Source: a virus. Taken from it: a stretch of DNA of 64,000 nt. The stretch lies in the IMG/VR virus record IMGVR_UViG_3300043392_000054, positions 64,001 to 128,000 of that record. One strand, given 5' to 3'. Made by a program: the position numbers and the translations under genes. Under the pieces are notes generated by a model. It saw only the letters and a list, made by a program, of their open reading frames with translations, did no database searches and was not told the origin of the DNA. Position 1 is the first letter of the stretch. Each line of letters begins with the position of its first letter. Below are positions 2,213 to 47,522 of this stretch, piece after piece.

Positions 2213-3676
2213 ATGGCACAATTAATTAACGAAGCAGAAATCAGAGAAACATGGTCTCCGATTATCGAATCTGCAACTGGTATCACAGATGCTGGTAAAT
2301 TAGCATGGATGTCTGAGTATTGCCATAACCACAAGTTATACGAAGACGCAAACATTATGAGATTAGACCCAACTATGAACTTAAGAGGTATGGGTGCAGT
2401 TTCATTCCCTTCAGGATTTGGTTCTAACCCAACTGCAGTAGGTTCAGGTGACAAAGCTCCAACTTTATTACCATTAGCAATGCAAGTTGCTGCGCAAACT
2501 ATCGCATTAGACTTAGTTCCAGTTATTCCAATGGCTGGTCCAATGGGCTTATTATCTTACTTAGACTTCGTTTACGAAGGTGGTAGATTAGACAACGGTG
2601 TAGCTCCAACTTACGTTAAGGCTGCTGGTGTTGTTGGTGATATCGCTGCAGTTCCAGGTACTAACGGTGCTTACGAATATGCTGGTAAATCAAGAATTGA
2701 TGGTAAATCAATCTACAAAGTTGGTGCTATTGATGGTGCTAACGCAACTGTTGCTGAAGACTTAGAAGCTGCTGGTGCTACTGCTGGTTCAGTTGTTTTA
2801 GTTAAAGCATTAGAAGACCACTTACCAGGTTTCTCTGGAAAAGATTCTGAGAACGCTTACTCAAGAGAAGAAGGTGAAAGAACTCCAGATAAGTTAATGG
2901 GTCTTTCTTTATTCTCTAAGGCTGTTGAAGCTAAGACTATTCAAGTTGCTGCTGCAGTAACTAGAGAGCAAGTTCAAGACTTAAAGCAATTTGGTGTTGA
3001 CGCAGTTGCTCAAGTTGAAGCTGTTTTAGTTAACGAATTAACTCAAACTATCAACGACTTAATCATCAAGAACATCGATTCATTAGGTGCTTCTAACATC
3101 ACTAAGGCTGTTGCAGCTGGTGAAATCGCTTCAGGCGCATTAGATATTAAATTATACGGTGCTGCTGATTTCCAAGGTGGTAAGACTGAAGGTTCTGAGC
3201 ACAGAAAAATCTTAACAGGTATTTTAGCTGCTGCGAACTTAATCGCTAACAGAGGTAGAAGAGGTGCTGGTAACTTTGCGGTTGTAGGACCACAAACAGC
3301 TACAGCTTTACAATCAGTTGCTGGTTACGTACCAAACCCATTTGCTAACACAGTTTCTCAAGCTGCAGGTGCAATCTACCCAGTAGGTTCAATCGCAGGT
3401 GTTCAAGTTTACACTAACCCTAAGTGGAAGTGGAATAACTTAGACGTATTAGTTGGTAGAAAAGGTGACGGTAACGGTCCTGGTTTAGTGTTCATGCCAT
3501 ACTTAATGGCTGAATCAGTTCAAACTATCGCAGAAGGTACAATGGCTCCAAAGGTTGCTGTTAAGTCTAGATTTGCTTTAGTTGAAGCAGGTTTCCACCC
3601 AGAAACACAATACGTTAAGACTACTATCTCTGCAGTTGCAGGTTCATCATGGTCTAACTTAATTTCTTTATCTTAA
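2213..3676 (+). CDS. gp23: major capsid protein (T4 gp23-like)
   Basis: W.PI.E N-terminus, DLVPVIPMAGPMG, REQVQDLKQF-G-DA..E.VL.NEL, G.GNF.V, FMPY, KSRFAL motifs; strongly biased codon usage. Confidence 0.95.
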   Translation: MAQLINEAEIRETWSPIIESATGITDAGKLAWMSEYCHNHKLYEDANIMRLDPTMNLRGMGAVSFPSGFGSNPTAVGSGDKAPTLLPLAMQVAAQTIALDLVPVIPMAGPMGLLSYLDFVYEGGRLDNGVAPTYVKAAGVVGDIAAVPGTNGAYEYAGKSRIDGKSIYKVGAIDGANATVAEDLEAAGATAGSVVLVKALEDHLPGFSGKDSENAYSREEGERTPDKLMGLSLFSKAVEAKTIQVAAAVTREQVQDLKQFGVDAVAQVEAVLVNELTQTINDLIIKNIDSLGASNITKAVAAGEIASGALDIKLYGAADFQGGKTEGSEHRKILTGILAAANLIANRGRRGAGNFAVVGPQTATALQSVAGYVPNPFANTVSQAAGAIYPVGSIAGVQVYTNPKWKWNNLDVLVGRKGDGNGPGLVFMPYLMAESVQTIAEGTMAPKVAVKSRFALVEAGFHPETQYVKTTISAVAGSSWSNLISLS

Positions 3677-3711
3677 TTCTAAATCAAGAATTAGAAATAG
3701 TTTAATATTGC

Positions 3712-3747
3712 GAAAGGGCTCTCATTTTGGGAGCCCTTTCCTTTTTT
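3712..3747 (+). terminator. intrinsic terminator after major capsid
   Basis: GAAAGGGCTC / GAGCCCTTTC 10-bp stem followed by a T-tract. Confidence 0.85.
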
Positions 3748-3798
3748 ATAAAAGAGAAAGATATATAAAGAAACAGTTATTAATATAATACTCTAAAA

Positions 3799-4872
3799 AT
3801 GGAAAAAATTAACAATTTCGAAAACTGGTATAGTAAAATTGTAGAATCAATTTCAGTATCTAAAAAAGCTGCAGAAGCAAACGAAGATAATGCAGTACAA
3901 ACTGCAGATGTTACAAATGCTACAACTTCAGCAGAAACTTCAAAAGCTAATATAATTAGCGATGTCGATTCTATTATGAATACTCTTTCTCAATTATCTG
4001 TTCAAATTAAAGAATCTATTGATTCTATTGATTTATTTGAAAGCGAAGAGGTAGAAATTTTAGAAGAAGATGTAATTAATGAATTAACGGCTGGAGAAGC
4101 TGGTAGTAAATTAGCAGATTGGATTTTTTATGCCCCTAAATATAGAAATATGCAAAAGAAAATCAATAAGATGAAGCTTAATGCTTTAGATATTCAAATT
4201 GCAGTTGATAATTTAGGAGGTTCTGAACAAGAAAGAGCTAAAGCAGATGCATTAAGAGCTAAAAAATCAACATTATCTCAACAAATATCTGATTTACAAT
4301 CTGCTGTAAATGATAAAGCAAAAGAAAGAGGAGAATATATTCAAAAGGTATTAAGCTCTGAAAAGATTAAAGGTCAAATGGAATTAGTTAAACGTTCTTC
4401 TGGTCAAGAAGATGACCCATCTAAGAAAAAGAGTTTAGCAGATTCTATGAAAGAATTACAAGCTAGATTTCAAGAAGAGGAAGCTGCTATTGCTAAATTA
4501 AAAGATAAAGCTAAACAAGACGGCGCTAAAAAGGCAAACAAAGAAAATGTCGCAGATAAAAGAGCAAAGGAACAAGCTGAAGCCGATAAAGAGGCTGCAG
4601 ATAAAGCTAAAGAAAAGCCCGAAGCTAAAGAACCTAAGAAAAAAGAGAAACCATCAGCAAAAGAATCTTTATTTATTGCTGCAACTGAATTAGGTTTAAA
4701 TGAAATGGCAGCTGAAATTTCATCTAAGCAAGATTGGCAATTTGAAGACAACTCGGCATTATATGTTAAATATAATACAGAAATAGTTAAACAACGTTCT
4801 ATTAATAAATTAAATGAATCACGTCATCAAAATTTATCAATTGCAGATAAATTTAGAATGTTATTAGACTAA
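3799..4872 (+). CDS. hypothetical K/E/A-rich protein, possibly a head internal protein
   Basis: 357-aa ORF after late box 3760; coiled-coil, charged low-complexity C-half. Confidence 0.75.
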   Translation: MEKINNFENWYSKIVESISVSKKAAEANEDNAVQTADVTNATTSAETSKANIISDVDSIMNTLSQLSVQIKESIDSIDLFESEEVEILEEDVINELTAGEAGSKLADWIFYAPKYRNMQKKINKMKLNALDIQIAVDNLGGSEQERAKADALRAKKSTLSQQISDLQSAVNDKAKERGEYIQKVLSSEKIKGQMELVKRSSGQEDDPSKKKSLADSMKELQARFQEEEAAIAKLKDKAKQDGAKKANKENVADKRAKEQAEADKEAADKAKEKPEAKEPKKKEKPSAKESLFIAATELGLNEMAAEISSKQDWQFEDNSALYVKYNTEIVKQRSINKLNESRHQNLSIADKFRMLLD

Positions 4873-5400
4873 TTATTTTTTAGAATTCTTTTTAGCTAAT
4901 TTAAGGAACTCCTTTTGCTGTTGTAGAAGGAGTTCTTTGCATTTCTTGCGAAACTCAACCGATGATTTTAAAATACGGCTATCTACCATTGGAGCTTTTA
5001 ATACATCATGATATTCTGGATGAACAAAGTTTTCTAAACTAAAATCATCCATTCTAGCTCTAATAGGTTTTCCAGATATAGCACAAACCCAATCAATAGT
5101 TTGATAATTATCCAATAGCTCTTCTTTGTGGATTATTTCCCCAGTAGACCAATCATAGAATAATTTATTGAATACATTGTGAGACTTAAATGTATAGCTG
5201 TGTTGTTCAAATAAAATTTGAACGAATTGGTCATTTTTACATCTATCTCTAAGTAACGGAAAATCATTTAACAATCTTCTTTGTGCACGAGATAAAGTTG
5301 AAAGCCTAATACCAAAACGATTCATCGGGTATGGACCACCCGTTCTAATAATCTCTGGATATTTCTTTTTAATTGCCATATTATTATTTATCTGAAACAT
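4873..5400 (-). CDS. hypothetical protein; the only credible minus-strand gene
   Basis: Fills the gap between plus-strand genes exactly; stop abuts the convergent stop at 4872; alternative start ATG at 5379; contains CAISGKPI. Confidence 0.75.
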   Translation of the reverse strand: MFQINNNMAIKKKYPEIIRTGGPYPMNRFGIRLSTLSRAQRRLLNDFPLLRDRCKNDQFVQILFEQHSYTFKSHNVFNKLFYDWSTGEIIHKEELLDNYQTIDWVCAISGKPIRARMDDFSLENFVHPEYHDVLKAPMVDSRILKSSVEFRKKCKELLLQQQKEFLKLAKKNSKK

Positions 5401-5421
5401 TTTAAAGGTATCTTGTATAAT
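5393..5421 (+). promoter_or_regulatory. class II promoter TGAAAC-N17-TATAAT
   Basis: Same 17-nt spacing at 23837, 32445, 39058, 60076 and 62995. Confidence 0.65.
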
Positions 5422-5443
5422 TTAAATAACACAAATAATAAAC

Positions 5444-6394
5444 ATGGTTAACGCACTATTTACAGAAAAGTATCGTCCTAAAAATTTAGATGAATTAATT
5501 TTACCAGAAAGGGTAATGAATAAGTTTAAAAATGGTTTAACGCAAAATGTATTGTTTGCAGGTTCACCTGGAACAGGCAAAACATCAACTGCTAAAGCTA
5601 TTATTAATCAATTTGAATTACCATATTTGTATATCAATGCATCGCGAGACACTTCAGTGGATGTTATTAGAACTCAAATCACAGATTTTTGCTCTACCAT
5701 GTCAATCCTAGATGACCGTGATAAATTTAAAGTAGTTATACTAGATGAGGTCGATGGTGTGTCAGACCAGTTCTTTAAAGCTCTGAGAGCAACGATGGAA
5801 CAATTTGCTTCAAACTCTAGATTTATTGCTACCTGTAATTACATTAATAAGTTACCAGATGCTATTCTTTCTCGTTTTGAAGTCATTAATTTTGATTTTG
5901 ATAAGTCAGAAGAAACAGAATTGACCAAAAAATATATTAAGCGCGTATATGATATTTGTGGTAAAGAAGGCATGACTATCGAAAAGCCAGCTTTAGTTGA
6001 ATTTGTAAAAAGAAACTTTCCAGACTTACGTTCTACTTTAAGCAAATTACAGGGTTATAAATCGCAAGGCACCGTTAATATTGGAATTGATGATGTAAAA
6101 CGTTTCAATTCGGTCTATAAAGATGTCTTTGACCTAATTTTTAATGAAACAGACCCTGTTAAAAACTATAAACTTTTAGTTAGTGAATATTCAAATAGAG
6201 TCGATGATGTATTAGAAATGTTAGGGAGCGATTTCATTGAATATATTCAAGCTGAGAAACCAAATAATATTAAAAATATACCCCAAATTATAATTACAGT
6301 AGCAGAGCACCAAGCACAGAGAATTCACGTAATTGACCCAATCATTACAATGTTATCTTGCGTTTATCGTATACAAGAAATAGTTAGGTCTTAA
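5444..6394 (+). CDS. gp44: sliding clamp loader large subunit (gp44 / RFC-like AAA+)
   Basis: LFTEKYRPKNLDE, Walker A GSPGTGKTS, Walker B VILDEVDG, sensor AILSRF, FPDLR. Confidence 0.93.
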   Translation: MVNALFTEKYRPKNLDELILPERVMNKFKNGLTQNVLFAGSPGTGKTSTAKAIINQFELPYLYINASRDTSVDVIRTQITDFCSTMSILDDRDKFKVVILDEVDGVSDQFFKALRATMEQFASNSRFIATCNYINKLPDAILSRFEVINFDFDKSEETELTKKYIKRVYDICGKEGMTIEKPALVEFVKRNFPDLRSTLSKLQGYKSQGTVNIGIDDVKRFNSVYKDVFDLIFNETDPVKNYKLLVSEYSNRVDDVLEMLGSDFIEYIQAEKPNNIKNIPQIIITVAEHQAQRIHVIDPIITMLSCVYRIQEIVRS

Positions 6395-42173: not shown

Positions 42174-42892
42174 TGAAAGATATTGCAATTTGTTTATTGG
42201 CATTTAAGGCACCAACAAGAGATATGAATGTCTTGGAAACAGAAGCCGATAATTTTTATCTTGAATCTGCAAAAAGACTAATCAAAAGAATCAATAAACA
42301 TTCGACTGCAGGTGTTTGTTTAATGACAAATATACCTTCTTATTTTCAAGATGTAGAAGTTGACATGTTAGTCGAAACTGAAGATGTTACAGCATATACT
42401 GATAAAATCAAAATATGTGAATATGCTTTATATGAATATAAAACAGCATTATATGTAGATTCTGACTGTAGATTTTTTATTGATATGATACCCGAACTAG
42501 ACTGGGAGCCTGGCTTTCATTCAGTTGGTGGTTGGTTTACTAATAATGATACAGCAGATTCTATTAAGTCTATTAGTTATTTTAAGTCAATTAGAGATTA
42601 TTGTGAATTAACAGGTCTTAATTTCGATAAAGCTCCATTGATTAATGAAAGGATGTTTGCAATTACGGGTCGTAAAGAACATAAAGCTTTTTTTGAATTG
42701 TATAAAGAATTAGCAGAAATTACAAAAGCAAATGATATGCAATTAGGTAATTATCCTATTGGCCGAGGGGAGGGTTTAGCAATGGGCCTTTCTATTCTTA
42801 ATTCTAAAATTAAATGGAATGATAAAAGTGATTCTATCATGAAATTGTATTCAACTTTAAGACATAATCCACAAAATGATGAAAATAAGTAG
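42173..42892 (+). CDS. GT-A-like glycosyltransferase
   Basis: DKIK...ALYVDSDC (DxD), GEG.AMG. Confidence 0.55.
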   Translation: MKDIAICLLAFKAPTRDMNVLETEADNFYLESAKRLIKRINKHSTAGVCLMTNIPSYFQDVEVDMLVETEDVTAYTDKIKICEYALYEYKTALYVDSDCRFFIDMIPELDWEPGFHSVGGWFTNNDTADSIKSISYFKSIRDYCELTGLNFDKAPLINERMFAITGRKEHKAFFELYKELAEITKANDMQLGNYPIGRGEGLAMGLSILNSKIKWNDKSDSIMKLYSTLRHNPQNDENK

Positions 42893-42898
42893 TCATTA

Positions 42899-42938
42899 AT
42901 TTTTTTATTTCAAGAATTATAGTTATATTTGCTTATCA
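42899..42938 (+). repeat. 40-bp class I promoter, exact copy of 45107..45146
   Basis: ATTTTTTTATTTCAAGAATTATAGTTATATTTGCTTATCA at both sites. Confidence 0.9.
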
Positions 42939-42951
42939 AACAAAATAAAAG

Positions 42952-43800
42952 ATGATAAAATTAGACTTAGTAAACGCAGAAAAATCCGAGATTAAATATA
43001 AAATTAGTCAATTTCCGGATGGACAACAAACTATCGACCTAACGGAATGGAGCGCAATTGAGAGATATACTGACGTAATTCGTATTCATACACGCTTAAG
43101 TTCGTTTAAAGACGTTGAACTTTTAATTTGTGCAACACAAGCACTTCGTAATTTCACAGACCGTCCTATTACCCTATATGCACCTTATTTTTTAGGTTCA
43201 CGTTCAGACCGTAGATTTCAAAAAGGCGGAGTTAATTACTTAAAGCAGGTGATTTGTCCAATTATTAACTCATTGAATTTCGCAGAGGTTGCAGTATTAG
43301 ACCCACATTCAGACGTATTAGAAGCATGTTTAAATAATTATATAAAAGTTCCTAATCATATTATGGTTAAACATGCTCTAAAGGATATTAACGTAGATAA
43401 AAGTCAAATTTGTCTAGTAAGTCCTGATGCTGGAGCCTATAAGAAAATCTTTGATGTTGCAAAAGAATTTGGCATTGAGAAAATTATCACCGCTAATAAA
43501 GTACGTGACATGAAAACCGGAGAGATTCTTCAAACAGAAATTCCAACCCTGGACCAACACAATGATATTAAATATATTGTCATTGACGATATTTGTGATG
43601 GCGGCAGAACTTTTGTAGAATTAGCAAATGCAATCAAATGGGGTAGACCGAGCGCTCAAATTTATTTAGTCGTAACTCATGGCATTTTTAGTGCTGGATA
43701 TACTAAACTAGAAGAGTGTTTTGAAAGCATTTATACCACCAATTCTTACAAAGACATTGAAGGTGCTTCCGATAAAGTAAAACAATTTAATGTATTTTAA
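42952..43800 (+). CDS. prs: ribose-phosphate pyrophosphokinase-like protein (candidate ADPR-PP synthetase)
   Basis: FPDGQ, PYF.GSRSDR, LDPHSD, VSPDAGA.KK, K.RD..TG.I, IDDICDGGRTF, VTHGIFS. Confidence 0.9.
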   Translation: MIKLDLVNAEKSEIKYKISQFPDGQQTIDLTEWSAIERYTDVIRIHTRLSSFKDVELLICATQALRNFTDRPITLYAPYFLGSRSDRRFQKGGVNYLKQVICPIINSLNFAEVAVLDPHSDVLEACLNNYIKVPNHIMVKHALKDINVDKSQICLVSPDAGAYKKIFDVAKEFGIEKIITANKVRDMKTGEILQTEIPTLDQHNDIKYIVIDDICDGGRTFVELANAIKWGRPSAQIYLVVTHGIFSAGYTKLEECFESIYTTNSYKDIEGASDKVKQFNVF

Positions 43801-44925: not shown

Positions 44926-45100
44926 ACTTCACATGATTTGTGGCAACTGTGGTCAAAATGACATGTTTGACTATCACATTTCTACGGAAATCGATGATGA
45001 CACTGATGAGGAATATCAAGTAGTTTATATCGGTTGCAATAACTGTAATACCCTACACGTCTTAGATGATAACGCAGAATTAATTAAAGAAAATAATTAG
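44912..45100 (+). CDS. small zinc-ribbon protein
   Basis: CGNC...CNNC. Confidence 0.75.
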   Translation: MAHAKLHMICGNCGQNDMFDYHISTEIDDDTDEEYQVVYIGCNNCNTLHVLDDNAELIKENN

Positions 45101-45106
45101 TCAAAT

Positions 45107-45146
45107 ATTTTTTTATTTCAAGAATTATAGTTATATTTGCTTATCA
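45107..45146 (+). repeat. 40-bp class I promoter, exact copy of 42899..42938
   Basis: Exact direct repeat; precedes the NAMPT 5' stub. Confidence 0.9.
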
Positions 45147-45160
45147 TAAAAACATAAGAT

Positions 45161-45226
45161 ATGAATCCTTTATTTTTAACAGATGGTTACATTATCAGAA
45201 GGATACAAAACCTAACAATAAATTAG
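45161..45226 (+). pseudogene. orphaned 5' stub of the NAMPT-like gene
   Basis: Encodes MNPLFLTDGY, identical to residues 6-15 of the 45990 gene, then diverges and stops at TAG 45224-26. Confidence 0.8.
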
Positions 45227-46034
45227 ATATATAAATAAAAACAAATCTTTATGAATTTTTATATTTATAAAATTACTAATTTGATTAATGATAAGATTTA
45301 TATTGGTAAAAGAAAAACTAATAAACTTATCGCAGAAGACGATTATTTTGGTTCTGGCGTGTTAATATTGAAAGCCATTGAAAAATATAAATTAGAGAAT
45401 TTTAAAAAGGAAATATTAGAAGAATGCACTGAAGAATCAATTAATGATAGAGAAATTTATTGGATTAATGTTTATAATTCAAATGACTTAAATGCTGGTT
45501 ATAACATATCTAGCGGCGGTGATGGTGGAGATTTAATATCTAATCATCCAAACCGAGAGGAAATTAGAGAAAGAATAAACAATTCTCTTAAAAATAGAGA
45601 ATTTACAGAAGAGCATAGAAAAAAATTATCAGAATCTAAACAAGGTGGTAAAAATCCAATGTATGGTACAAATCTTACTGAAGAAGAAAAAATACATTTA
45701 AGCACTTTGATAAAAGGTAGAAAAATGTCAAATCAATTTAAAGAAAATGTTTCTAAAGGTAAAAAAGGAGTTAAATTCACAGAAGAACATAAAGCTAATC
45801 TATCTAAGAATCATGCAGATTTTAAAGGTTATAAGCACTCTGAACAAAGTAAAGCAAATATGAGTGCAGCCAAAAAAGGAGCTATTTTAAATAAACCACA
45901 TGAATGTAAAAATTGTGGAAGATTTATATCAAGTATTCATAATTTAAACAAACACTATAATAAATGTATAACTATTAAAAATAAATAAAATGAGTACAAT
46001 ATCAATGAATCCATTATTTCTTACAGACGGTTAT
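45192..46034 (+). mobile_element. homing endonuclease cassette in the 5' end of the NAMPT-like gene, carrying a recoded replacement start; boundaries approximate
   Basis: Stub upstream, own late box at 45226, GIY-YIG ORF, then a synonymous copy of MNPLFLTDGY at 46005-34. Confidence 0.6.
45251..45988 (+). CDS. GIY-YIG homing endonuclease with NUMOD3-like repeats
   Basis: FYIYKITNLIN.KIYIGK, YFGSG, REIYWI, GYNI..GG.GG; FTEEHRKKLSES.QG.KNPMYG and FTEEHKANLS repeats; C-terminal CxxC. Confidence 0.92.
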   Translation: MNFYIYKITNLINDKIYIGKRKTNKLIAEDDYFGSGVLILKAIEKYKLENFKKEILEECTEESINDREIYWINVYNSNDLNAGYNISSGGDGGDLISNHPNREEIRERINNSLKNREFTEEHRKKLSESKQGGKNPMYGTNLTEEEKIHLSTLIKGRKMSNQFKENVSKGKKGVKFTEEHKANLSKNHADFKGYKHSEQSKANMSAAKKGAILNKPHECKNCGRFISSIHNLNKHYNKCITIKNK

Positions 46035-47516
46035 AAATGTGGACATAGAGAACAATATCCTAAAGGAACCACTTTAGTTTATTCAAACTTCACACCTCGC
46101 AGTAACAAGTATGCTCCGAAAGGATGTGAACAGGTAGTTTCATTTGGACAGCAAATGGTTGTACAACAAATTCACGAAGCATTTCAAAATGAATTCTTTA
46201 GTAAACCAAAAGATGAAGTTTGTGGTGAAATGAAACGCGAGTTATCATTGTACTTAGGTACTGATTATGATGTATCACATTTTGAAGCTCTACACGACCT
46301 AGGTTACTTACCTATCAATGTTAAAGCAATTGAAGAGGGAACATTAGTACCAATCAAAGTACCGGTATTAACAATTTACAATACACATCCTGATTTCTAT
46401 TGGGTAACAAATTACTTAGAGACAATTATCTCTAATTTGTTATGGAAGCCAATGACGTCAGCTACAATCGCTCACACATACAGAAAAATATTGACTAAAT
46501 GGCAAGAAAAAACAGATGCTGAACGCGGATGGTTTATTGATTGGCAAGGACATGACTTCTCAATGCGTGGTATGGATTCAGTTGACGCTGTTATTAGCTC
46601 AGGATTAGGTCACTTAACATCATTTAGTGGAACTGATTCATTACCTACATTGTATGGTGCTAGAAAATACTATGGAGAAACTGGATTTGTAGGTGGTAGT
46701 GTTAATGCAACTGAGCATAGTGTAATGTGCGCTGGTGGTTCTGACGATGAGGTAGGTACATTCAGACGTTTAATTGAAACATATCCAACCGGTATTTTAT
46801 CAATTGTATCAGATACATGGGACTTATGGAAAGTTTGCACTGAGCACGTAGCTACTCTTAAAGAAGAGATTTTAGCACGTGATGGTAAATTGGTTATTCG
46901 TCCTGATTCAGGCGACCCTGTAGATATTCTATGTGGAGAACCAATTATATCTCGTGATTATAGAGATGTTGTTGAAAACGCACAATTAGATTTAACACAT
47001 CCGAAATATAAAGGAGTTATCGAATTACTTTGGGATGTATTTGGTGGAACAATCAACGAACAAGGTTACAAAGTATTAGATTCTCATATTGGAGCCATTT
47101 ATGGTGACTCAATTACAATCGACAGGGCCGATGAAATTTGTAAGCGATTAGAAGCAAAAGGTTTCGCATCTACAAACGTTGTATTAGGTATTGGTTCATT
47201 CACATATCAATTTAATACTCGTGACACATTTGGTTTCGCAATGAAAGCAACCTATGTTGAGGTAAATAAACCTAAATTTAATGGTGATTTTAATCCTGAA
47301 GGTAGAGAAATCTTCAAAGACCCAATCACAGATGATGGAACTAAAAAATCAGCAACTGGGTTATTATTTGTCGGGAGAAATGATAATCTGGACATTGCTT
47401 TATATGATAGAGTAGATTGGTTATCTGAAAGTATGGGATTACTTCAACCCATTTACAAAGATGGTGAATTCTATAACGAAACAACATTAACTCAAATTCG
47501 TGAACGCTTAAAGTAA
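45990..47516 (+). CDS. nadV: nicotinamide phosphoribosyltransferase-like protein (candidate Namat)
   Basis: LTDGYK.GH..QYP, YSNFTPR, HDFSMRG, H.TSF.GTD, ATEHSVMC, SIVSDTWD, IRPDSGDP, IYGDSI, RDTFGFAMKAT, KKSA.G. Confidence 0.95.
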   Translation: MSTISMNPLFLTDGYKCGHREQYPKGTTLVYSNFTPRSNKYAPKGCEQVVSFGQQMVVQQIHEAFQNEFFSKPKDEVCGEMKRELSLYLGTDYDVSHFEALHDLGYLPINVKAIEEGTLVPIKVPVLTIYNTHPDFYWVTNYLETIISNLLWKPMTSATIAHTYRKILTKWQEKTDAERGWFIDWQGHDFSMRGMDSVDAVISSGLGHLTSFSGTDSLPTLYGARKYYGETGFVGGSVNATEHSVMCAGGSDDEVGTFRRLIETYPTGILSIVSDTWDLWKVCTEHVATLKEEILARDGKLVIRPDSGDPVDILCGEPIISRDYRDVVENAQLDLTHPKYKGVIELLWDVFGGTINEQGYKVLDSHIGAIYGDSITIDRADEICKRLEAKGFASTNVVLGIGSFTYQFNTRDTFGFAMKATYVEVNKPKFNGDFNPEGREIFKDPITDDGTKKSATGLLFVGRNDNLDIALYDRVDWLSESMGLLQPIYKDGEFYNETTLTQIRERLK

Positions 47517-47522
47517 GCATAA

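Follow-up and report, generated by a model that had tools for sequence, protein, structure and literature searches.

How can a homing endonuclease gene lie within the first codons of another gene and leave that gene intact? The question is raised by a 64,000-nt stretch of DNA from a freshwater phage, bases 64001–128000 of the 182.8-kb IMG/VR virus record IMGVR_UViG_3300043392_000054 (31% G+C), here called the window; positions refer to the window unless stated otherwise. In it, a gene for a GIY-YIG endonuclease interrupts the 5′ coding end of a NAD-salvage gene of the NAMPT/Namat-like type. The harmless residence of a homing endonuclease in a gene is generally taken to depend on one of three things: an intron, an intein, or a position between genes whose neighbours are conserved. 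We conclude that the locus is very probably an intronless homing cassette, built around a GIY-YIG endonuclease whose homing site would lie in the first ~20 codons of NAMPT/Namat, next to the codons for TDGYK. The window locus, about ten related lineages and two pairs of empty and filled sites document what appears to be a fourth route in phages, namely entry into a coding start by an element that brings its own replacement start, and up to a whole replacement gene.

Organisation of the interrupted gene

All features of the locus lie on the plus strand. The promoter-like element of the original, resident NAMPT gene (45103–45160) ends ~16 nt before the ATG of a short stub (45161–45191), which comprises this ATG, codons 2–10 and one further base. 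Codons 1–10 (45161–45190) read MNPLFLTDGY, after which the frame continues through 11 unrelated codons to a TAG at 45224–45226. Immediately behind the stub, the left end of the mobile cassette is formed by a second, older and decayed stub (45192–45212) that reads LSEGYKT, from LTDGYKT, and in which 14 of the 16 core bases equal the NAMPT consensus. A conserved A/T box (45226–45239) that begins with the 10-mer GATATATAAA (45226–45235) lies 15 nt before the endonuclease ATG and is a candidate promoter for the endonuclease gene. This gene (45251–45988, 245 aa) is followed after a single base by the start, at 45990, of an intact NAMPT-family gene of 508 aa (45990–47516). The latter opens with a five-codon extension, MSTIS (45990–46004), which is part of the cassette and carries the new start codon, and then repeats the ten residues of the stub from 46005. 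Just 3′ of the duplicated part, CGHREQ replaces the consensus TGHHQQ; it is included in the most divergent tract of the imported gene (codons 1–16, 46005–46052), where the homing site presumably lies.

Re-reading of the sequence bears out the first-pass annotation of this locus in every detail: the stub, the endonuclease ORF, the restart and the four silently changed codons. Between the two 30-nt copies there are five base differences, all silent and all within these four codons. Since five random substitutions in a 30-mer would keep the peptide with a probability of only ~1.6 × 10−4 (about 1 in 6000 trials), we conclude that both copies evolved as coding sequence. The annotation had further described the endonuclease as free-standing, with neither intron nor intein. 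This description stands, as the non-coding spacers around the endonuclease ORF are 60 nt and 1 nt long, and an Rfam search of the region gave no intron family, even at E ≤ 10. Equally, the insertion lies inside the 5′ coding end of NAMPT as had been proposed, with the native start left behind as the stub at 45161–45190 and the inserted DNA supplying a replacement start, from which the gene is intact.

The layout does not result from faulty assembly. In DNA sequenced in an independent run (X2), one contig spans the endonuclease–NAMPT junction (45463–47051; positions 45206–45339 are uncovered in X2), and the same order of stub, endonuclease and NAMPT is found in several independent assemblies of related phages. 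No joint that skips the endonuclease gene was found in the DNA and RNA contigs of four runs, contigs of this kind being uninformative on transcription, splicing and endonuclease-free variants. No terminator-like site was seen between the resident promoter and NAMPT. The gene at 45251 is the only GIY-YIG gene of the genome, in which no other GIY-YIG gene with a stub was found. Outside the window, at genome positions 161921–162691, a 256-aa ORF that is rich in Cys pairs and has a weak NUMOD3 match may be a second, different endonuclease-like gene.

Empty and filled sites

Megablast of the region against a phage collection gave no match, and the best tblastn matches there were at most 52% identical; close relatives were therefore taken from IMG/VR and from metagenomes. 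An exact-word scan of viral contigs for the promoter–stub junction of the window returned nothing. It had been predicted beforehand that endonuclease-free relatives would have promoter, ATG and MNPLFLTDGYK in one contiguous run, and this is the arrangement observed. In about 75 IMG/VR loci (NAMPT 73–84% identical), an MNPL[FL]LTDGYK start directly follows a promoter-like box. In L123, a contig found by a metagenome scan and the nearest endonuclease-free relative of the window, promoter, ATG and native NAMPT start are likewise contiguous, and the gene continues with the consensus TGHHQQ.

Comparison with L123 also reveals the extent of the imported DNA. The flanks of the two loci are 95.9%, 91.2%, 98.1% and 90.9% identical, whereas their NAMPT genes are 78.2% identical, fairly evenly along the gene. 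Homology on the left stops at 45191, and there is a single mismatch in the 30 coding bases of the stub. From the high identity of the flanks and the low identity of NAMPT we conclude that the endonuclease came with a foreign NAMPT allele. By this comparison, the tract from 45192 to ~47520 is foreign to the backbone, and of the resident locus only the promoter and 31 nt of the gene remain. The stub itself is of the common endonuclease-free allele type, and the first 27 nt of the functional copy show one or two differences from the alleles of two cassette-bearing relatives, L106 and L111; stub and functional copy each resemble natural alleles of a different lineage. Two proposals of the first-pass annotation have to be revised in this light. 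The differences between the copies are not a synonymous recoding made in place, being instead the ordinary divergence of a resident allele (the stub, 1 of 30 bases from L123) from an imported one, and the import is not limited to the start of the gene, as the whole of NAMPT was brought in here. L123 has, in addition, one small ORF on each side of NAMPT (L123 positions 1501–1881, 126 aa, and 3458–3631, 57 aa), the first bounded by a 19-nt repeat; both are absent from the window, at 45100 and at 47517–47522 respectively.

A second pair of filled and empty sites is formed by L108, which has the endonuclease, and L045 and L044, which lack it and are 95–98% identical to it upstream. The 37-nt stub of L108 is identical to the start of the L045 gene, and the functional copy of L108 differs from L045 and L044 at 18 positions in the first 57 nt compared with 30–36 in the next 300 (p = 7 × 10−5 to 5 × 10−4). 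Because L045 has consensus codons 13–19, it is not a deletion product of an L108-like genome, and the endonuclease gene was therefore gained in L108. The NAMPT of L108 (566 aa) also carries, at L108 positions 4181–4448, an insertion of ~70 residues, and has a strongly diverged middle third compared with its 94–98% identical relative L045.

A trace of older exchange may be preserved in a relative represented in an RNA library (X7). Its contig, 95% identical to the body of the window NAMPT, loses homology exactly at 46053 and continues 5′ of this point with native-type GYKTGHHQ, suggesting that the donor had earlier undergone a shorter replacement, limited to the first ~16 codons. This is the sole RNA contig on NAMPT, and contigs cannot show transcript starts. 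An apparent stub before L060 and L068 proved to be the C-terminus of the upstream gene.

The endonuclease and its relatives

The endonuclease matches PHROG 314 'homing endonuclease' (E = 6.7 × 10−44), PHROG 5123 'GIY-YIG motif' (1.5 × 10−9) and Pfam NUMOD3 (3.2 × 10−12). The Pfam GIY-YIG family gave no hit at E ≤ 0.001; PF01541 scores 14.4 bits, below its cut-off of 22.6, with model positions 2–78 covered, and is present in many of the homologues from the same database search. The GIY-YIG motifs take the form YIYK and KIYIGKR, and Tyr6, Tyr17, Gly19, Glu68 and Asn85 are invariant in 30 homologues. The domain aligns with residues 4–93 of I-TevI (sequence E = 0.007), the Glu of ERE and the Asn of GYNI being matched. 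In an AlphaFold model, residues 1–90 have pLDDT values of ~87–96, and the top three Foldseek matches are all to the I-TevI catalytic domain (1mk0 and 1ln0; E = 2 × 10−5 to 4 × 10−4, TM 0.70–0.72 on the target), with 1mk0 at E = 2 × 10−5 and TM 0.72. The I-TevI-like domain is accompanied by NUMOD3 repeats and by a C-terminus that resembles a C2H2 zinc finger.

A database search recovered a subfamily of full-length homologues at 60–70% identity, and the ORF is intact in all lineages, at least ten of which are diverged. All close homologues for which context was retrieved (50–70% identity; L089, L106, L107, L108–110, L111–113, L114, L115/116 and L117/118) adjoin the 5′ end of NAMPT, and the upstream genes differ from lineage to lineage. 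In L119 (45% identity) the endonuclease lies upstream of NAMPT in divergent orientation. On this contig (Logan SRR24908253, positions 1–1173), its neighbours on the two sides are NAMPT and a Prs gene, which are both encoded on the opposite strand. The cassette, with an old stub and box like those of the others, has the reverse orientation to its target. The NAMPT-linked endonucleases form one clade with 100/100 support.

The replacement start is equally widespread. Extensions homologous to the five codons of the window are present in six other cassettes (L089, L106, L107, L108, L111 and L114), in all of which the native NAMPT Met codon has become Leu or Ile; the upstream ATG must therefore be the start there.

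Stubs are found in several states: single and intact in L108, intact together with an older decayed copy in the window and L111, decayed and of full length in L089 and L107, truncated at the 5′ end in L106 and L114, and decayed within the cassette of opposite orientation in L119. The old stub occupies the same position of the cassette in the window, L089, L106, L107, L108, L111, L114 and L119, and all old stubs end at the same base, position 1 of codon 13. The presence of a second, older stub in the window points to serial invasions. A related layout occurs in L001 (IMGVR_UViG_3300032288_004603), where the full NAMPT is preceded, at a distance of 13 nt, by a stub that comprises 22 codons of a NAMPT start of the extended MR-I type (L001 positions 3913–4010).

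The candidate homing site

The junction on the left side is located behind codon 10 in the window, behind codon 12 in L111 and L001, and within codon 13 in all old stubs and in L108; the most diverged NAMPT tract ends at codons 16–19. Comparison of the window with the L106 cassette gives 3 differences in the first 57 nt and 60 in the next 300. Codons 12–17 are non-consensus in all six endonuclease-linked alleles tested and in 16 of 65 endonuclease-free alleles (p = 5 × 10−4, by a test that ignores shared ancestry), and it is these very codons that distinguish the near-identical contigs L115 and L116. From these alignments we infer that the homing site lies within NAMPT codons ~10–19.

This position coincides with a functionally important part of the enzyme. 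The insertion point is within a block of ~40 nearly invariant NAMPT residues, in which codon 15 is a local hot spot. In Namat, the nicotinamide ring is held by the Asp and Tyr of the N-terminal TDxYK motif (PMC12774641), which places both the stub and the insertion point at codons of an active-site motif.

Proposed mechanism and alternative explanations

We propose that the endonuclease cuts endonuclease-free NAMPT alleles and that the break would be repaired with an endonuclease-carrying genome as template. To the right of the break, NAMPT homology would serve for repair, and anything from ~50 nt to the whole of the donor gene would be copied. To the left, where no upstream gene is shared, the join would be made inside the resident 5′ end, either within the old stub of the cassette, giving a clean single stub as in L108, or as an illegitimate join, giving an extra stub as in the window and L111. 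The resident promoter and the first 10–13 codons would thus remain as a stub. The gene would stay functional, as a full 5′ end is supplied by the cassette, with a start codon of its own 1–12 nt past the endonuclease stop. The resident target would be destroyed, and the imported copy, which differs from the consensus at the presumed site, may resist cleavage. Expression of NAMPT would then proceed by read-through or by coupled expression. For the window, this would mean that the tract from 45192 to ~47520, consisting of old stub, endonuclease and whole foreign NAMPT, replaced the resident gene of an L123-like phage, and that the two stubs record at least two successive invasions.

Several observations weigh against this reading. 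Where the site lies, where the cut falls and whether the imported allele is resistant have all been read from the points at which sequences diverge, and the association at codons 12–17 takes no account of shared ancestry among the alleles. L123 differs from the window over the whole of NAMPT, and a swap by ordinary recombination, with the endonuclease as a passenger, is inseparable there from repair initiated by the endonuclease; no donor lineage for the imported NAMPT was found. A stub is recognisable in neither L115/116 nor L117/118, and is thus not required for the element to persist. L115/116 is nested next to L089 in the tree and looks like the result of a deletion between two ATGAATT starts. 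L001 has a stub and an extended NAMPT start with no endonuclease gene, a layout that may be either an endonuclease deletion or a repair product; its 41-nt spacer was considered as a remnant of a deleted endonuclease gene and rejected, since it aligns to the cassette no better than shuffled sequence.

Some of these observations would suit an endonuclease that is a passenger or defunct, in a module that spreads by ordinary homologous recombination and leaves stubs as scars of illegitimate recombination unrelated to cleavage. The swap of the whole NAMPT in the window lineage, the sub-threshold Pfam GIY-YIG score and the stub without endonuclease in L001 all fit such a view. We nevertheless regard it as improbable, because the clustering of junctions and of divergence would not be expected from random recombination: all left junctions lie within three codons of one another in different backbones, and divergence clusters at codons 1–19. 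The ORF is moreover intact, with its motif residues invariant, in at least ten diverged lineages. Duplication of the resident 30 nt in place, followed by silent recoding under selection for cleavage resistance, would account for the silence of all differences between the copies and for their location where endonuclease-linked alleles deviate. It is very improbable, in that it does not explain why the stub is 1 of 30 bases from L123 when the whole downstream gene is 78% identical and the flanks 91–98%, why the first 27 nt of the functional copy are so close to the L106 and L111 cassette alleles, or why L108 and L045 repeat the pattern. Removal of the interruption at the RNA or protein level, by splicing of an intein or a group I or II intron, or by ribosomes that bypass the tract between stub and gene body, is suggested only by the fact that a gene start is interrupted. 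Against it stand the empty Rfam search, non-coding spacers too short for a ribozyme core, a stub frame that stops, a downstream gene that is complete with its own start, and six related cassettes in which the native Met is gone and only the new ATG can start the gene; we consider this explanation hardly credible.

A fourth idea is compatible with the homing cassette that we propose and concerns what the stub may do for it. The stub could be a portable left homology arm of the element, so that the endonuclease would be flanked by target sequence on both sides, like an intron, and homing would not depend on gene order. It could also, or instead, be an operator beside the endonuclease promoter, to which the enzyme would bind as half of its own site and so repress itself, in the manner of I-TevI. 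Eight cassettes, with endonucleases that share only 45–70% identity, have kept an old stub in one and the same position, its 16-nt core is 74% identical pairwise compared with 46–56% at silent and third-codon sites of the adjoining gene, and upstream genes are different in every lineage. The resident-type sequence of L108 stops precisely where the old-stub position ends, as a crossover within it would produce, and gene fragments in homing endonuclease gene islands (HEG-islands) have been proposed as recombination substrates by Barth et al. (PMC10055350). The core is only 16 nt long, however, and was picked by eye for similarity, which introduces ascertainment bias; L115/116 and L117/118 do without a stub, and the window and L111 gained a second stub with no recombination in the old one. 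We put the idea forward tentatively, as possible and somewhat short of an even chance. If it is true, any phage with the target gene could be a recipient of the element regardless of its upstream genes, up to a whole Namat-like counter-defence allele could be moved between unrelated backbones, and nested stubs would be a readable record of successive invasions.

Promoter-like elements

The resident promoter belongs to a family of at least seven near-identical copies of ~45 nt in the 182.8-kb genome, each 20–35 nt before an ATG (genome positions 49561, 106899, 109100, 122960, 143314, 163847 and 175584, three of which are window positions 42899, 45100 and 58960). Each consists of a T-run followed by a TAGTTATATTTG-like box, which we take to fit the TAnnTTTG type of Bacteroidota. 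No Shine-Dalgarno sequences are evident. The copy before the window stub is 98% identical to the promoter that directly precedes NAMPT in the endonuclease-free L123.

The A/T box GATATATAAA is kept in all stub-carrying cassettes, 3′ of the old stubs. Six of its seven copies in the genome lie 15–29 nt before a gene start on the same strand (window positions 3760, 31295 and 45226; genome positions 30012, 161243 and 180308), and the box is a candidate for a second promoter class. PHROG searches of the genes behind it gave no functional class. The first-pass annotation had assigned a late box to the endonuclease ORF. The T4-type late consensus TATAAATA is not enriched before genes, only 3 of its 44 copies lying near gene starts, and the element in question is the conserved GATATATAAA-type box.

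The target gene and its neighbourhood

The target ORF has above-cut-off matches to NAPRTase (PF04095, 2 × 10−34) and NAMPT_N (PF18127, 7.9 × 10−7) and belongs to PHROG 448 (2.9 × 10−193). Its best solved relative is Namat of SPbetaL1 (9W5W/9W5X; E = 6 × 10−158, 530 bits), compared with ~10−56 and ~195 bits for canonical NAMPTs. Namat has a 'selectivity clamp' helix with aromatic residues that include Tyr396 (PMC12774641); in the corresponding segment of the window ORF a Phe is kept and another Phe occupies the position of Tyr396, although substrate preference is not readable from sequence.

About 2 kb upstream of NAMPT, a Prs-like ORF (42952–43800) stands behind the same promoter type, in a copy that is 89–91% identical (42881–42953). 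Its Pfam matches are below the curated cut-offs (23.7 against 27 bits and 22.3 against 26.3), and the gene is syntenic with NAMPT in L001, L111 and L119. The Prs-like and Namat-like genes are candidates for an NAD-reconstitution pair of the NARP1 type (Adps and Namat).

Further insertions appear to occur in NAMPT genes. In Bacillus phages Kirov, Izhevsk, Skywalker, Chewbecca, MrDarsey and KLEB27-3 and in a Kolpuevirus, NAMPT matches in two pieces, over a span ~230 nt longer than the gene, which suggests introns. In Rhodococcus phage Weasels2, an HNH endonuclease is annotated under the NAMPT match. In L106 (NCBI metagenome contig JACCDV010222794.1, positions 3238–5726), NAMPT is split into ORFs of 272 aa and at least 297 aa, right after the catalytic-His motif, by an endonuclease-like gene on the opposite strand (265 aa, of the NUMOD3/zinc-finger type). 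Rfam gave no intron for this second insertion, and the arrangement looks like one of 'genes-in-pieces'. NAMPT/Namat may thus be a hot spot for mobile elements.

Comparison with known systems

The fourth route outlined above would explain how the element moves between phages of different gene order. Both mosaicism and the diversification of amino acids beside an active-site motif would have a concrete source in it, and a likely NAD-reconstitution (counter-defence) gene would be carried around by a selfish nuclease. In annotation, such cassettes can be recognised by a small orphan ORF whose sequence recurs at the start of the second gene downstream. The family is also a source of a natural GIY-YIG enzyme for which the candidate target, ~30 bp in length, is well bracketed. 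In our literature searches, whose coverage was incomplete, we found neither an endonuclease that targets NAMPT/Namat nor a 5′-end duplication or replacement by a phage homing endonuclease.

In its catalytic fold and motifs, its NUMOD3-type helices and zinc finger, and its choice of a conserved, functionally critical coding target, the NAMPT endonuclease resembles I-TevI, the endonuclease of the T4 td intron. I-TevI is intron-encoded, however, and its insertion is silenced by splicing, whereas the NAMPT endonuclease is free-standing, and its DNA-binding part ends in a C2H2-like finger in place of the I-TevI helix-turn-helix.

The free-standing 'intronless homing' endonucleases of T4-like phages (SegF, SegG, SegE and MobE, reviewed in PMC2988022) are similar in that a non-intron, non-intein GIY-YIG enzyme is aimed at a neighbouring conserved gene, with break repair and co-conversion, a promoter of its own, and presence/absence polymorphism in close relatives. 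Polymorphism of this kind, with an adjoining foreign tract, distinguishes the window from L123 and L108 from L045 and L044. The seg and mob genes of T4 are intergenic or divide a gene into two pieces that are functional (nrdA, gene 60/39 and gene 43), and duplication of a target 5′ end is unmentioned in the T4 review (PMC2988022). The NAMPT element, in contrast, lies inside a coding start and brings a replacement start. As both its flanks are NAMPT sequence, homing would be independent of the upstream neighbour.

In the HEG-islands of ICP1-like vibriophages, too, phage homing endonuclease genes move together with cargo that is essential or useful; small ORFs beside them are fragments of the cargo genes and are proposed recombination substrates for later homing (Barth et al., PMC10055350). 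There the fragments are mentioned in passing, with no defined junction or replacement-start layout, the enzymes are of the T5orf172 and HNH types, and the cargo is different.

Replacement of a gene terminus is described for the mobile endonuclease ORFs of fungal mitochondria (mORFs) in Allomyces macrogynus atp6 and in atp9, cox2, nad3 and atp6 of Glomus (PMC3630166). In these as in NAMPT, an intronless endonuclease ORF is found in a coding region, a foreign gene end arrives with it, which in the mORFs becomes the expressed end, and the native end persists as a second copy, matching endonuclease-free relatives, the differences between the copies being largely silent. A duplicated terminus of this type is present in both the window/L123 and the L108/L045 pairs, at the 5′ and not the 3′ end. 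The fungal elements replace the 3′ end, often as an in-frame fusion with the endonuclease, reside in mitochondria and are mostly of the LAGLIDADG family. In the phage locus, by contrast, a GIY-YIG element has taken over the 5′ end, where it brings a new start codon, separates the promoter from the gene, leaves nested stubs and may carry with it up to the whole of the gene that it has entered.

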